From Octopus vulgaris (lineage: Eukaryota): a stretch of DNA of 64,000 bases. The position numbers and the translations under genes are program-made. The DNA lies in NCBI GenBank assembly GCA_951406725.2, contig OX597817.1, positions 123,504,001 through 123,568,000 of the forward strand. Reading direction: 5' to 3'. Under the pieces are notes generated by a model. It did not search any database and was not told the DNA's origin. It saw only the letters and a list, made by a program, of their open reading frames with translations. Shown in pieces: positions 17,833 through 63,652 of the stretch; the stretch's first letter is position 1; each line of letters opens with the position of its first letter.

Positions 17833-17982
17833 TTTCTGTGAATGTCGGACAGCCTTCGAGCCATCGTCGTCAAGAACCCGATGACATCACGTTGCTTTAT
17901 TGAAAAACTTCTGTGAATGTCGGACAGCATTTGAGCCACCTTCGTCAAGAACTCAATGACAGCACGTTGCTTTATTGAAAAC
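17833..17982. repeat. ~75-bp tandem duplication within the mariner N-terminal coding region
   Basis: ttctgtgaatgtcggacagc..cacgttgctttattgaaaa occurs twice, back to back. Confidence 0.9.
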
Positions 17983-27419: not shown

Positions 27420-28150
27420 TGTCACGGATCTCACGTCGATCAAATCCAACCCTTCTCAGTTGTACCAAGTGTTCTTCCCGTTTCAATGCTGTAATTAATT
27501 TCTATAGTTTCGAATGTGTGCATGTTAAAGAATTTTGTACTGCGATGTGATATCCCTCTAAATGCGAGACATATCCGATTCTGTTCTAAAGCTGACATTC
27601 CGACTATCAATGGAAAACAAAGGAGAAATTCTCCGTTGTCTAATTCCTCTATCGCGCACGCATTCTATGTACGATAACTGAAAGTAGGACACAAGTTCTT
27701 GCGGAAGATCGTCATCATCTACAAGATCTTCGATTCCATCAATCACATCACCGGGAAGAAAAGCTAGCACTGAAAAACATCTGATCTTAATGCTAAACTC
27801 ATTATCATGATGGTATCTTTCCTTAAAGCCAAAATCACATACTTTTCTGTACACATTTTGAGATAGAGGAAAAAGACAATATGTGATGGAAGCACAATGA
27901 AACAGATAAAATGCTTTCGCAAAATCCACCATAACTCAGTCCTTGACGTAATTCATTTAAGCTTCTTTATTCTTGTTTGGAAGTAATGCTGTGAATGCTC
28001 TGTATGAACCCATTTGAATATGAAGCGTGTACAACTGATCAAATAAAGTTGAGGAGCACTTAAAAGTTCCATCATCTGCCCAGTGTTTTACATTCACTAT
28101 CATTAAGCCCTTTATCAGTTGCAAACACAAGTAATCTATCTACACGGTTT
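27420..28150 (-). pseudogene. MULE/Mutator transposase remnant
   Basis: WADDGTFKCSSTLFDQLYTLHIQ, MVDFAKAF, CLFPLSQNVYRKV, LAFLP and SYF..YI..PLF, in the order of the MULE DDE domain. Confidence 0.8.
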
Positions 28151-28175
28151 CACAAACCTGAAGGCACCGTCAAAA

Positions 28176-28635
28176 ATGGAAATGCAAAGATCCTATGGAA
28201 TTTTATGATTCAGTGCGACCATGAAATAGAGAATAGGAAGCCGGACATAGTTTTAATTGAGAAAGAAAACAAACTATGCTGCATCATAGATATAGCATGC
28301 CCAGCTGACAACAAGGTATGCGATAAGGAAGAAAGAAAATTCGAGAGATATGACAGGTTAACCTGGGAAATTAAGCAGTTGTAGTAGAAGAAAAAGGTAG
28401 CAGTAGTACCAGTAATTGTCGGCGTCCTGGGAACAGTGAGCAAAAATCTCGAGAATTACGTAGAACAAATAGGGGCTGCAATAATGGTGGAGCACATACA
28501 GGAAACAGTACTGCTTGGAACCGATCGAATACTTCGGAAGGTGCTTGAAAAAGAAGAGGCGTCACCTTAGTTTACTGGTAGTGAACAGCTAACACTGTAA
28601 TACATCTCCAGCGTTATTAGCTGTGCAAAGACAAT

Positions 28636-42076: not shown

Positions 42077-42340
42077 TATAATTTAGAACAAACAATTAAA
42101 TGTTTTCTTTATAGTACTCGGAGTTTTGAATGTCAGAGGTAAGAGCCACGATGCATTCGCGCCAGATATTAATGGCAACAGATGCTATGAAAAACTGTTG
42201 AATAAAAGGGAAGTTACTCTAATAGGAAGAAAAAGAAAAAAGAAAAGCGATAAAAAATACACGCAAGCATATTCTCATAATATATAGACATAAACCTCCT
42301 GTGTTCACAACGTCTACATATATACATGTATCTATCTATC

Positions 42341-42399
<59 letters not shown>

Positions 42400-42462
42400 T
42401 GACAGGGCGAGACTGCTAGGTAGTCGGCCGCATGCTAGAAATAGATCATCAACGATCAAACT
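42341..42462 (+). repeat. Left copy of the duplicated flank: (TA)n(TG)n plus the first ~64 bp of the MITE TIR
   Basis: Repeated at about 43388-43534 on the other side of the array. Confidence 0.85.
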
Positions 42463-42756
42463 GTACATATAACCTTCGAAGGTTATATGGATACAGTTTG
42501 TGTATCAAATAGCTAACTTAAGGCGATGGCCTCATGGAGCTAATAAGCGGACAGCTTTATTCTTACTTTTATAAGAATGCCATATTAGTATGGCGATAAC
42601 TATTAATTTCCAGGAACGCTGCCGTGTTCTCTTTTAGAGAGACTTAGTAATTTTAATATTTCTATTATTGAAAACAAGTGGATGTATTCCACCGAAACTA
42701 GGTAATAAAACCTTCGAACAGAGATAGTCGGAAGCGACACCTACTGGTCTGACTAC

Positions 42757-42798
42757 GCTACATTGACAAGGGGCAATACCCCGAAATGCGTCTGTTGC
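42757..42798 (+). ncRNA. Type I hammerhead ribozyme, copy 1 (U3:A8 variant)
   Basis: gctaca-TTGACAA-gggg caata cccc-GAAA-tgcg-TC-tgttgc. Predicted cleavage after 42792. Confidence 0.8.
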
Positions 42799-43118
42799 TG
42801 TCGACCAAGTAGTGTGGAGCGACTGACCTCCCTTGTTCGAAGGTTATATGGATACAGTTTGTGTATCAAATAGCTAACTTAAGGCGATGGCCTCATGGAG
42901 CTAATAAGCGGACAGCTTTATTCTTATTTTTATAAGAATGCCATATTAGTATGGCGATAACTATTAATTTCCAGGAACGCTGCCGTGTTCTCTTTTAGAG
43001 AGACTTAGTAATTTTAATATTTCTATTATTGAAAACAAATGGATGTATTCCACCGAAACTAGGTAAATAAAACCTTCGAACAGAGATAGTCGGAAGCGAC
43101 ACCTACTGGTCTGACTAC

Positions 43119-43160
43119 GCTACATTGACAAGGGGCAATACCCCGAAACGCGTCTGTAGC
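43119..43160 (+). ncRNA. Type I hammerhead ribozyme, copy 2 (U3:A8 variant)
   Basis: gctaca-TTGACAA-gggg caata cccc-GAAA-cgcg-TC-tgtagc. Perfect 6-bp stem I, palindromic ACGCGT stem III and a GUC triplet. Predicted cleavage after 43154. Confidence 0.88.
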
Positions 43161-43388
43161 TGTCGATCAAGTAGTGTGGAGCGACTGACCTCCCTTGTTC
43201 GAAGGTTATATGGATACAGTTTGTGTATCAAATAGCTAACTTAAGGTGATGGCCTCATGGAGCTAATAAGCGGACAGCTTTATTCTTATCTTTATAAGAA
43301 TGCCATATTAGTATGGCGATAACTATTAATTTCCAGGAACGCTGCCGTGTTCTCTTTTAGAGAGACTTAGTAATTTTAATATTTCTAT

Positions 43389-43466
<78 letters not shown>

Positions 43467-43470
43467 TGTA

Positions 43471-43833
43471 TTGACAGGGCAAGACTGGTAGGTAGTCGGC
43501 CGCATGCTAGAAATAGATCATCAACTATCAAACTACAAAGAATGTTCTCCAGAGGAAAATTTAGCGAACACCAGAACCAAAGTTCGCGGGCAGGACAGAT
43601 GAAAATTTATATAAAAAAAACAGAATTAATCGCATACCTCGGTTTCAGCCTTTAACAAAAGAATTACTTACATAATTCAAATGTCCGTGGCCTCATTAGT
43701 ACGATCGTTCAGAATAAATGTAATCTGAAAATCTAACCCCTAAATTTTCCTCTAGAGAACATTCTTTGTAGTTTGAGCGTTGATGATCTATTTCTAGCAT
43801 GCGGCCGACTACCTAGCAGTCTTGCTCTGTCAA
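43471..43833. mobile_element. MITE with ~94-bp terminal inverted repeats and TA flanks
   Basis: 43471-43564 is the reverse complement of 43740-43833, with few mismatches. Confidence 0.92.
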
Positions 43834-43931
43834 TATACACATGTATTAGAATTTTTTTCTGATTTTTCAGATTTGTGTATGCTATATTACTGGTTTTAAA
43901 TTGAAATTAAAATTAATATTAATTTATCTCC

Positions 43932-46977: not shown

Positions 46978-48936
46978 ATCATCACCATCGTTTAACGTCC
47001 GTTTTCCATACTGGCATGGGTTGGACGGTTTTACTGATGTCTGGAAAGCCAGCAGCTGCACCAGGCTCCAAACTGATCTGGCAATGTTTCTACAGCTGGA
47101 TGCCCTTCCTAATGCCAACCACTCCGAGAGTGCAGTAGGTGCTTTGTACATGCCCACAGCATGGGAACCAGTCAGAGGGCACTGGCATTGACCATGTTCG
47201 GATGATGCATTTTACGTGCCACTGGAATGGTGGCCAATCAGGGGCCACTGGCCACAGCTACGATTTTCGTTTTACTTAACTCAAGAGATCTTCTCAACCA
47301 TATCATATTGCCCGACGCATCAGATGTACTTTTAAATGGGCCAGACATGCAACACTGGCATCGGCCATGGTTTCGATCTCACTTTATTTGTCCGGTTTTC
47401 TCAATCACAGCATATCTCCAAAGCTCTCCATCTCCTGTCATTGCCTTTGTGAGGCCCAACATTTGAAGGTCATGCTTCACCACCTTGTCTTATGTCTTCC
47501 TGATCTACCTTCTTACCAAAGGTTCCTTCCACAGTTAGGGCATGACACTTTCTCACACAGCTGTCTTCATCCATATATAACACATGACCATACCAGCACA
47601 GTTGTCTCTCTTGCATACCACATTTGATGCTTCTTATATGCAACTTTTCTCTCAGGGCACTCACACTTTGTCGTGTATGAACACTGACATTACACATCCA
47701 GTGGAGCATACTAGCTTCATTTCTTTCAAGCCTACGCATGTACTCAGCAGTCATGGCCCATGTTTCACTGCCATGTAGCTTGGCATTTCACACACATGCA
47801 TCATACCTTTCATCCTGAGCGAGAAGCCCTTTGTTACGATCAGAGGTAGGAGCTCCCTGAACTTTGCCCAGGCTATTCTTATTCTTGCTCCTAACAACCA
47901 TCCTCACTAAAGATTCGGTCGCCTCGGTAGCGGAAGCTATCAACTACTTCTGCTTATTCCCCTTGGCATATGATGGAATCTTCAGTGTTTATTGCCCCTG
48001 TGCATCTGCCACACACAAAAACTATCTTCCCGGTTAACCTTCCTTTAATAATGCTGCACCTTTTATGTGTCCATAGCTTACACTGAGTACATCATATGGA
48101 GTCTCTACTCATACATTTTCAACAGATCGAGCAAGGCCATCTACCTGAAGGGGTTTGGGATTTGTCAGCCTTCCTACTTACTAAGACTTTGGTTTTTGCT
48201 AGGTTAACCCTAAGGCCCTTTGATTCTAGCCCTTGCTATCACACCCTAAACGTTGTTTCTAGTTCTGGCAGTGACTCAGCTTTTAGAGCAAGGTAATCAG
48301 TAGAGAGGGGCTCCCAGGAGAAGCATGTCTTAAATTCCTCTGTTATTGCCTGGAGGATTATGATGAATAAGAGGACTGATCCTTGGTAAACCCCTATTTC
48401 TAACCAGAAATACTCGTTGCTGACAACATCCCTGTAGAGGGCTTGTACAACTCTTACCAACCACTCGTCAATCCCCAGTTTCCGCATTGACCACCAGATA
48501 AGGGATTAGGGGACTCTGTCAAAGGCTTTCTCTAAGTCAACAAAAGCTAAGTACAGAGGTTTAATTTTGGCTAGATATTTCTCTCGCAGTTGCCTTACCA
48601 GAAATACAGCATCAATGGTGCTTCTGCCTGGCACAAAACCAAACTGCATTTCGTCTAGGCTAACTTTCTCCATAATTAGTTGCGCTATGGTCCTCTCATT
48701 AACTTTCATTACTTGATTCAATAATTTGATACCCCCCTGTAGTTATTTCTATCTAAAGCATCACCTTTACCCTTGTAGCAGCTGACTATGGTGCTGCTAC
48801 ACCAGTCATTGGATATGACTCCTTCATGAACTACCTGATTTATGATGCAGGTGACACGACCATAACCCACACCACCCGATATTTTAAGCATCCCAGCAAG
48901 GATTGCTGATGGGCCAGGTGCTTTCCCTGTCTTCAT
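46978..48936 (-). pseudogene. 5'-truncated RTE-clade LINE (RT domain, 3' UTR and (GAT)n tail)
   Basis: KTGKAPGPS, YKGKGDALDRNNYRG, DEMQFGFVPGRSTIDAVFLVRQLREKYL, LAFVDLEKAFDRVP, GVYQGSVL and RQLCWYGHVL. Frameshifted. Confidence 0.95.
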
Positions 48937-50660: not shown

Positions 50661-50995
50661 TTTTGACTGTTATTTCTAGCAACTCTGTTGGTTTGCTCGT
50701 CGCTTTTAAATATTTAATTGCTCACGAATGTTTCTCGCTATTTTCCCTGTTTACTTTGCTCATGTATATTTTAATGTTTTGATTGTTACTTCTAGCAACT
50801 CTTGTTGGTTTGTTTGCAGCTTTTAAATATTTAATTTGCTCGTGAATGTTTTAATGTTAACTTTGCTCTTCTATATTTTAATATTTTGACTGTTATTTCT
50901 AGCAACTCATAAAGGTTTGTTCGTAGCTTTTAAATACTTAATTTGCTCACGAATGTTTTCATGTTTTTCAGTTAATTGTAGCTAGTTTAATGTTT
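50661..50995. repeat. Three tandem ~107-116-bp units
   Basis: ttttga.tgtta.ttctagcaactc at 50661, 50777 and 50884. Confidence 0.9.
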
Positions 50996-61384: not shown

Positions 61385-62010
61385 TTTGCTATGTATATTT
61401 TGTGGCTTTCCATTTGAGATTTAATTTCCATTTCTGCAATTTATTCTCCAAATCTTCTACAGATTCTACTTTAAAAACTAGATCACCACTATACAACAGT
61501 TTCTTTGGATACCCAATGTTAAATGCCTCTGTAATGGTTTGGAACACTTTAATAAATTGGATGGAACTGAGAATGGAAACCTGATGTACCCATACTTGCA
61601 TGCTAAATTCCATGCTGAAATTCTTGTTATATTTCACCTCAGTGATGGCAGTTCTCTACATGGATGCATGGATTTCATAATCCATTCATCTAGCTTTAGT
61701 TATTTTAGCAATACCCAGACCATTAAACATGAAACCCTATCAAAGATTATCTCTAGTTCCAGAAAAGATAGGTAGCAAAGATTATCCTAGCTATACCTAT
61801 TTCTGTAGTTGTATCATTAGGAAGGTGATGTTCATGTTGCCATGTCCAGAATTAAACACAAACTGCTTCTCACCTATGTTATTTTGGTTATATATATGGA
61901 CTGGTTCAACTTTCGCAGGAGTCCCTGACATTTCAACATCTCTTCAGCTGAACTCTAGGCCCTTCGATGTCTCTGACATTACCAAGAATTCATCATTAAA
62001 CTGGCTTATA
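61385..62010 (-). pseudogene. Old RTE RT fragment
   Basis: EFSMQVWVHQVSILSSIQF..LLYSGDLVFKVESVEDLENKLQKWK, i.e. degenerate GVHQGS / LYADD motifs. Confidence 0.7.
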
Positions 62011-62701
62011 AGGGTGGAGCTGTAGTGGTATGGTATGCAGACCTTTACAAGGTTGAAGCTCTCCACCAACTTCAAGACATCTTTTTTGTTGCCCTCTGCC
62101 ATCCAACCCCACACCTAACTGCCAACAGACTTTATCTTCCACCATTCACGACTTCATTTCCTCCTCCTGTCTTCCTCCCACTGCCTCTGACCTTATTGTC
62201 TGTACCCCAATATCCTTCCCTGTACATTGGTCAAATGGGATCTGAGACATCAGACTTGGCAATAACACCCTGGTGTCATGCTACTTCCTCTTCACCAGTC
62301 ATTCACTACAGCATCTATCTGTGTTTGGATTGTCTTTTCACAGAGTTCACCTGGACTCCCACCTTCACCATGAACAGAAATTAATCTTCTCCCTTCATTC
62401 CTTTGCTTTTTATGGTCTCAATTCACTACTTCTCTTTATCTAACACCAACTCCACACAGATTCCCATACACCTCCCACATTCAACTGCCCCTCCTCTCCA
62501 CCCTAACTCACTGCCTAACTCAGCAACCACATCACACACATACCACTATACAAACACCCATACACACTGTTCAATTCAGTACTCACATCCCACACCACTA
62601 CACCCACACACACCTTCCCACTCCAAACACATGCCACACACCATTATATGCACTCCCACTCCCATACACATGTATAAAATATATACATATATGTATATAT
62701 A

Positions 62702-63329: not shown

Positions 63330-63652
63330 GCTGGTGGCACATAAAAAGCACCATCCGTTCGTGGCCATTGCCAGCCTCGCCTGGCCCCTGTGCCAGTGGC
63401 ACGTAAAAAACACCATCTGATCATGGCCGTTTGCCAGCCACGCCTGGCACCTGTGCCGGTGGCACGTAAAAAGCACCCACTACACTCACGGAGTGGTTGG
63501 CATTAGGAAGGGCATCCAGCCGTAGAAACATTGCCAGATCAGACTGGGCCTGGTGCAGCCTACTGGCTTCCAAGACCCCAGTTGAACCGTCCAACCCATG
63601 CTAGCATGGAAAGTGGACGCTTAACGATGATGATGATGATGATGATGATGAT
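63330..63652 (+). mobile_element. RTE 3'-tail fragment or partner SINE with internal ~65-bp repeats and a (GAT)n tail
   Basis: gtggcac.taaaaa.cacc occurs three times, followed by the same tail as 60010-60192. Confidence 0.88.

Follow-up and report, generated by a model that had tools for sequence, protein, structure and literature searches.

The window analysed here, a stretch of 64,000 nucleotides from Octopus vulgaris, contains a hammerhead-bearing tandem array of 2.53 units of 362 nt (42475-43391, forward strand). The reading preferred here, to which we would give a probability of about 0.7, is that this array belongs to a many-copy non-coding repeat whose transcripts, when they hold at least two units, would cut themselves as a double hammerhead and do so far better than a single unit could, an expectation drawn from modelled folds and from an analogous axolotl motif. 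Judged by its sequence the array is a member of the metazoan non-LTR retrozymes, as it is a tandem, non-coding 362-nt repeat of less than 50% G+C with a hammerhead in two consecutive units, it is multi-copy, and its flanks can be read, by inference, as a target duplication of more than 4 bp. The units are whole tandems and not terminal repeats around a body. G+C content is 40% across the array (145 of 362 nt in one unit) in a window that is AT-rich and contains many microsatellites, and no open reading frame of 100 or more amino acids overlaps 42475-43391. The window also has other short tandem duplications at 17834-17981, 50748-50965 and 63334-63477 (periods of 75, 107 and 63 nt), in none of which did a relaxed type I descriptor detect a hammerhead. 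The parts of the array are as follows.

42475-42835, forward strand: unit 1
42836-43197, forward strand: unit 2
43198-43391, forward strand: partial unit 3
42757-42798, forward strand: type I hammerhead copy 1, damaged, predicted cut after 42792
42786-42791, forward strand: copy 1 stem III hexamer ATGCGT, an imperfect palindrome
42793-43154, forward strand: candidate circle, the predicted 362-nt monomer between the two predicted cuts, fold z about -7 against shuffles
43067-43211, forward strand: predicted long imperfect rod extending copy 2 helix I, its arms predicted to swap between adjacent units
43119-43160, forward strand: type I hammerhead copy 2, intact, predicted cut after C43154
43119-43124 with 43155-43160, forward strand: copy 2 helix I
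43125-43131, forward strand: copy 2 core, with U3 and A8
43132-43135 with 43141-43144, forward strand: copy 2 helix II, closed by a 5-nt loop
43145-43147, forward strand: copy 2 GAA
43148-43153, forward strand: copy 2 stem III hexamer ACGCGT, a perfect palindrome

Type I membership is indicated by a 3:8 Watson-Crick pair, the GAA, the A15.1-U16.1 pair and a UH cleavage site, all of which are present, with U3:A8 replacing C3:G8, and the proportions (helix I of 6 bp, helix II of 4 bp and a short helix III looped by a palindrome) match the canonical metazoan type I definition (PMC4209133). The relaxed type I descriptor, applied to both strands of the 64-kb window, gave two matches, copies 1 and 2, against a chance rate of 0.03 matches per dinucleotide-shuffled window (3 of 100 shuffles matched); the hammerhead surrounding the palindrome is thus more than chance. 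The palindrome alone is weak evidence, the arithmetical chance of self-complementary inner four letters being about 1/16 once A15.1 and U16.1 are fixed, and support for it comes from its invariance in the family. The Rfam hammerhead models gave no match at the gathering threshold, nor at E values up to 10, in stretches of 1601 nt and 111 nt, probably because the core is a variant and helix III is short; weak Rfam matches of other kinds were microsatellite artefacts. The exact motif pattern had no match in metagenome contigs or viral contigs. U3:A8 represents a compensatory pair of core changes, apparently family-wide, and the variant is both natural and active in vitro (PMC3088659) and is recorded in about 1,300 Schistosoma motifs related to Cercyon (PMC4209133).

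The earlier note on this DNA dealt with the interval 42783-43154, which opens at the copy 1 GAAA and closes at the base where copy 2 is predicted to be cleaved, the two motifs lying 362 nt apart. Its reading of the stem III hexamers (42786-42791 and 43148-43153) is borne out, as is its claim that the two can cross-pair fully, all six antiparallel pairs forming with one G-U wobble. Within the motif the copies differ at two places. A C>T change at 42787, in copy 1 stem III, is of the CpG type, and an A>T change at 42796 produces a U-U mismatch at the fourth pair of copy 1 helix I, leaving five of its six pairs. The description of the motif as a minimal hammerhead, on the other hand, has to be given up, since it is of canonical size with a 6-bp helix I, a 4-bp helix II and a looped helix I extension; the minimal form found in Penelope-like elements (PLEs) was considered and rejected because helix II is of 4 bp, helix I is of 6 bp and there is no extra base. 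The region that could hold loop contacts consists of a 3x1 internal loop beside copy 2 helix I (3 nt at 43116-43118 opposite 43161), the middle bulge letter of which is A or G in the family, and the 5-nt loop II. The pair of loops may resemble the loop 1-loop 2 contact of the Schistosoma ribozyme.

Folding predictions favour pairing between units. The calculated energies of the hexamer duplexes are -7.5 kcal/mol for copy 2 with copy 2, -5.7 for copy 1 with copy 2 and -3.9 for copy 1 with copy 1. In a two-unit stretch (42700-43215) a nested fold dominates in which helix I is swapped between units with a probability of 0.99 and formed locally with one of 0.01, and forming the full double hammerhead in this stretch costs 2.3 kcal/mol relative to the free ensemble, compared with 18.1 kcal/mol for two separate hammerheads each having a one-pair helix III. 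A single monomeric hammerhead costs 7.6 kcal/mol, in a linear unit or a one-unit circle alike, of which 2.0 is core opening and 5.6 the one-pair helix III; these nearest-neighbour energies leave out loop 1-loop 2 contacts, Mg2+ and folding order. The proposal that stem III is too short to stand alone is upheld: as a monomer, copy 2 stem III amounts to one A-U pair and a 4-nt loop, and in the one-unit circle helices I and II are pre-formed (0.89-1.0) and the pairing probability of A15.1-U16.1 is 0.000. The predicted monomer (42793-43154) is strongly self-paired, with z scores of -7.0 as a circle and -6.8 as a linear molecule, and none of 100 shuffles folded as well in the linear test. When the palindrome was removed in silico, the stem III cross-pair fell to 0 and the arm swap persisted at 0.85-0.99, so the palindrome was rejected as the driver of inter-unit pairing. 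In these models it is the long arms that bring the units together, and the contribution of the palindrome is limited to closing helix III. The central stem III cross-pair has a probability of 0.49 in the natural sequence and 0.82 if copy 1 is given the letters of copy 2, the copy 1 T and the helix I lesion together accounting for the predicted loss. The copy 1 local rod forms first during transcription and the arm swap would therefore need branch migration.

A preference for the dimer is supported by the geometry, by the predicted folding and by the behaviour of an axolotl motif with the same helix III. That motif, with one pair and a palindromic tetraloop, was 6% cleaved in 1 h as a monomer and far more as a dimer (PMC7229834). 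It has been described more generally that an unstable helix III hinders monomer cleavage and that tandem copies form an active dimer, a design thought to permit the cleavage of multimers yet spare monomeric circles (PMC4209133; PMC6765202). The suggestion in the earlier note that the monomeric circle is protected in this way is consequently not new, being already in print in PMC4209133, which cites earlier work, and in PMC7229834 the question of what stops metazoan circles re-cutting is left open. Of that note's claim of cleavage as a dimer, the preference stands as a prediction (2.3 against 7.6 kcal/mol, together with geometry and the axolotl analogy) and the role given to the palindrome in bringing units together does not. 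Its further claim that processing is restricted to multimers survives as a likely bias and is too strong as a strict rule, a looped helix I extension being linked to cleavage of monomers. Single newt and salamander motifs can cleave when given such an extension (PMC6155905), and published monomer clones of retrozymes react at about 0.8 per min in coral and about 0.1 per min in mussel. On analogy with these systems, cleavage is likely to be biased toward multimers rather than confined to them.

The same observations can be given another explanation, in which the monomer is competent: the looped helix I extension would dock on loop II and offset the one-pair helix III, the palindrome would only speed the cutting of multimers, and circles would be protected by proteins or by religation. 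We consider this unlikely. The closest assayed design, which had all the tertiary contacts, reached only the 6% in 1 h already mentioned when tested as a monomer, the U3:A8 core would not be expected to quicken cleavage, and the palindrome is invariant in the family, as the sequencing runs indicate.

Of 24 listed sequencing runs, 20 contain the stretch, under four organism labels and from 11 studies, and the contigs of four of the 20 were aligned to one 362-nt period (42960-43321). None of the 20 is recorded as an RNA run, which says nothing about expression. These runs are X1 (organism A, kind unrecorded), X3 (organism B, guessed to be DNA), X8 (organism D, kind unrecorded) and X11 (organism A, guessed to be RNA), and they contributed 3903, 1779, 546 and 60 aligned contigs respectively, figures that do not represent copy number; contigs of this kind cannot reveal strand, ends or circles. 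X1, X3 and X8 are genome-sized, and 40 of the 62 variant rows were listed. Among the rows listed, 24 places reach a variation of at least 3% in one or more of X1, X3 and X8, and the unconstrained position N7 is the sole variable place in the core, helix II and helix III (C>A, at 69-81% of depth in X1, X3 and X8). Taken by itself, the scarcity of variants among the 29 conserved places (0 of 23 variable places; P = 0.14) does not reach significance. Every C>T, C>A, G>A and A>G place counted in X1, X3 and X8 falls among the listed rows, assuming the same 3% cut, and no C>G, G>C or G>T change was counted in any of the three. With these kinds of change accounted for, the inner four letters of the palindrome and A8 are invariant at the 3% level in these runs; for U3 and for the A>T change in helix I the accounting is full in X1 only. 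The T of copy 1 is private, at less than 3% in X1, X3 and X8, and the G-U wobble was rejected as a functional feature. Most changes within helix I and the rod beyond it preserve pairing, with A43122G, A43166G and T43167C as single-sided cases, and A43114G with T43163C would be compensatory (phase is not shown).

Depth along the unit dips where the subfamily in the window departs from the majority, and there is no place along the aligned period where a fifth of the molecules begin or end. Loose ends at 43095-43113 and at 43165 point to at least one diverged subfamily with a different rod sequence on both sides of the hammerhead, which could supply covariation data, given assembled copies. In X11, the run guessed to be RNA, there is an excess of A>G and T>C changes (36 of 57 places, as against 35 of 78 when X1, X3 and X8 are pooled; Fisher p = 0.04), and 13 of the 15 listed rows peculiar to it are of these two types. 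The signature looks like A-to-I editing of family copies transcribed on both strands, with A43158 in helix I among the places affected, though at low depth, in an unmatched individual and in a library of guessed type, and what it hints at for the repeat is transcription only. A search of the literature for A-to-I editing of retrozymes found no relevant report.

How the array came to be where it is can be considered from its boundaries, which are set out below.

42318-42462, forward strand: left flanking direct repeat, (AT)n(GT)n and about 70 nt of a MITE-like arm
42457-42480, reverse strand: the opening 26 nt of the array repeated in inverted orientation, with a 2-nt gap
43385-43400, forward strand: 3' terminus of the array, where it passes into (AT)n; other copies of the family stop at this point too
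43390-43534, forward strand: right flanking direct repeat, with 3 differences in 69 unique nt
43463-43841, no strand assigned: MITE-like inverted-repeat element with 102-nt arms, 94% complementary and 175 nt apart

The distance from the predicted cut to the downstream end of the array is 237 nt, and at the corresponding positions, 43026 and 43029, family contigs also pass out of the unit into (AT)n (at least 14 and at least 38 in X1, and at least 14 in X3). The inverted 5' copy folds back at a 6-nt palindrome and has six letters in common with the end of the left flanking repeat, and opposite-strand joints recur in the family (at least three in X1 and at least one in X3). The flanking direct repeat, of about 110-145 nt, is a probable long target-site duplication. 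The MITE-like element starts and stops at a TG/TA microsatellite, and the array appears to have been inserted in its left arm. The 3' end of the family (43012-43034, also 43374-43391) lies at the loop of a predicted AU-rich hairpin and closes with three letters common to the (AT)n target. This place is a candidate internal start site for reverse transcription. At four positions units 1 and 2 carry the same letter, in each case one that is in the minority across the family, which is what a single template would give. Taken together, the arrangement suggests one copying event with an internal start in which the cleavage site was crossed twice, and a double crossing would imply that the template was a circle or an uncut multimer; it is also possible that the array was amplified locally at a later time.

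Elsewhere in the window, a degenerate open reading frame fragment (61977-62384, forward strand) resembles the N-terminal part of a Penelope/Poseidon-type reverse transcriptase, a fragment at 28064-28384 (forward strand) resembles a restriction-like endonuclease of non-LTR elements and another at 47470-47787 (reverse strand) the C-terminal part of an RTE-type LINE. Pfam assigned no family to the four reverse transcriptase- or nuclease-like fragments found away from the array, these three included, no hammerhead was found near 61977-62384, and no reverse transcriptase or GIY-YIG reading frame was found in or beside the array. Partial tandems, adjacent inverted 5' copies and AT-rich targets are described for PLE insertions (PMC8557442; PMC11167929), and animal retrozymes have been argued to derive from PLE termini (bioRxiv 10.64898/2026.07.22.740005).

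These likenesses raise a second alternative, which is that the array marks the pseudo-LTR terminus of a longer, autonomous Penelope-like element, surviving as a partial tandem after truncation or multiplied locally by unequal crossing-over, so that the hammerhead would matter in the parent only. The fixed 3' end, the (TA)n target and the adjacent inverted 5' copy are PLE traits and retrozymes have been reported as pLTR derivatives (bioRxiv 10.64898/2026.07.22.740005), but the units adjoin head to tail with no reading frame between them, go-back joints in X1, X3 and X8 show that the unit is tandem elsewhere too, the share of aligned contigs that continue into unlike sequence is 0 in each of these runs, and the monomer is predicted to fold as a closed rod (z about -7). 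We regard this alternative as improbable. That the motif has lost its catalytic activity, or resembles a hammerhead by accident, and that its palindrome is meaningless is scarcely credible. In favour of this view are the lack of an Rfam match, a core that deviates from the C3/G8 consensus, the two lesions of copy 1 and the failure of eight of nine predicted Xenopus elements, proposed as dimer retrozymes, to cleave in vitro (one of the nine did; bioRxiv 10.64898/2026.07.22.740005). Against it, the paired core changes compensate for each other and occur in active ribozymes (PMC3088659), the chance rate is only 0.03 per window and N7 alone varies in the family core among the rows listed. This locus may itself be dead even if the family is not.

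The preferred reading, of a repeat cut mainly as a double hammerhead, would proceed as follows. Each whole unit has its own helices I and II and its own core, with helix III reduced to one base pair, as can be read directly from its letters. When two units are transcribed together, their long arms are predicted to exchange partners within a nested fold free of pseudoknots, whereupon the palindromes would meet as a shared 6-bp helix III and each active site would combine an enzyme half from one unit with a substrate half from its neighbour. Cutting at both sites would release the 362-nt monomer, which, to judge from axolotl, coral and mussel retrozymes, could be circularised by a host ligase, and the circle, keeping helices I and II without III, would re-cut slowly although not at a rate of zero. 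A Penelope-like reverse transcriptase/endonuclease might then nick (TA)n DNA and copy from a fixed internal AU-rich site, and copying past the cleavage site more than once would yield partial tandems with a fold-back 5' inversion. The locus in the window has decayed: the U-G wobble of copy 1 adjoins the core predicted to cut copy 2, and the U-U mismatch affects helix I of the core predicted to cut copy 1, and with these two lesions this locus is likely to be weaker than the family type.

A stricter reading would make the array part of a high-copy, multi-species family that standard hammerhead models overlook because a U3:A8 core is used throughout its lineage, its circles spared by a strict two-unit switch (arm swap and palindrome) and its insertions bearing the direct footprint of Penelope-type copying of circles, namely one fixed internal start primed at (TA)n, a crossed cleavage site, a duplication exceeding 100 nt and a 5' inversion that folds back with 6-nt microhomology. 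This we put forward tentatively, as a possibility that perhaps does not hold in full. If true, it would bear on how circles are protected and on the enzyme that moves metazoan retrozymes. The mechanism of cleavage as such is established for newt and axolotl repeats, and its confirmation here would be one more example. A family whose core is fixed as U3:A8 goes unnoticed by Rfam, as it would by descriptors built on C3/G8, and counts of retrozymes in such genomes may be low. The internal 3' end, the (TA)n target and the 5' inversion offer hints, at the level of insertions, for the unproven Penelope-like mobilisation of animal retrozymes.

The giant squid genome has 235 annotated type I hammerheads (PMC6962438). 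Literature searches on octopus or cephalopod hammerheads and Penelope brought up no account of the family, although the supplement of PMC7229834 or Lunse et al. may already include it or a close relative. Its nearest counterparts are the axolotl HHR_Amex1 and newt satellite 2 repeats (PMC7229834), which are likewise non-coding tandem units of 150-450 bp with less than 50% G+C, carry one type I hammerhead per unit with a one-pair helix III and a palindromic tetraloop, and have a self-paired monomer and a target duplication of more than 4 bp. Compared with the metazoan non-LTR retrozymes of that paper, as far as parts of it describe them, the octopus array has an apparently fixed U3:A8 core, it comes from another host lineage and its cleavage and circles are predictions; its internal 3' end in (AT)n and fold-back 5' inversion are undescribed in those parts. 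The PLE hammerheads of Cervera and de la Pena (2014, PMC4209133) are similar in being of type I, in the palindromic helix III and in the dimer model proposed for them, whereas their minimal motifs have a helix II of 7-8 bp, a helix I of 4-5 bp and an extra unpaired base 5' of helix II and are mostly solitary, compared with the 4-bp helix II, the 6-bp helix I, the lack of an extra base and the tandem units without reading frames of the octopus array. PLE insertions as described by Craig et al. (2021, PMC8557442) and Frangieh et al. (2024, PMC11167929) have in common with the array the partial tandems, an adjacent inverted 5'-truncated copy, AT-rich or (TA)n targets and a start of reverse transcription internal to the RNA. 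The array differs from them in having no reverse transcriptase or GIY-YIG reading frame and in its flanking duplication of about 110-145 nt, and its 3' junction has three letters in common with (AT)n, whereas the start site described for the Anolis PLE is non-homologous to its target.
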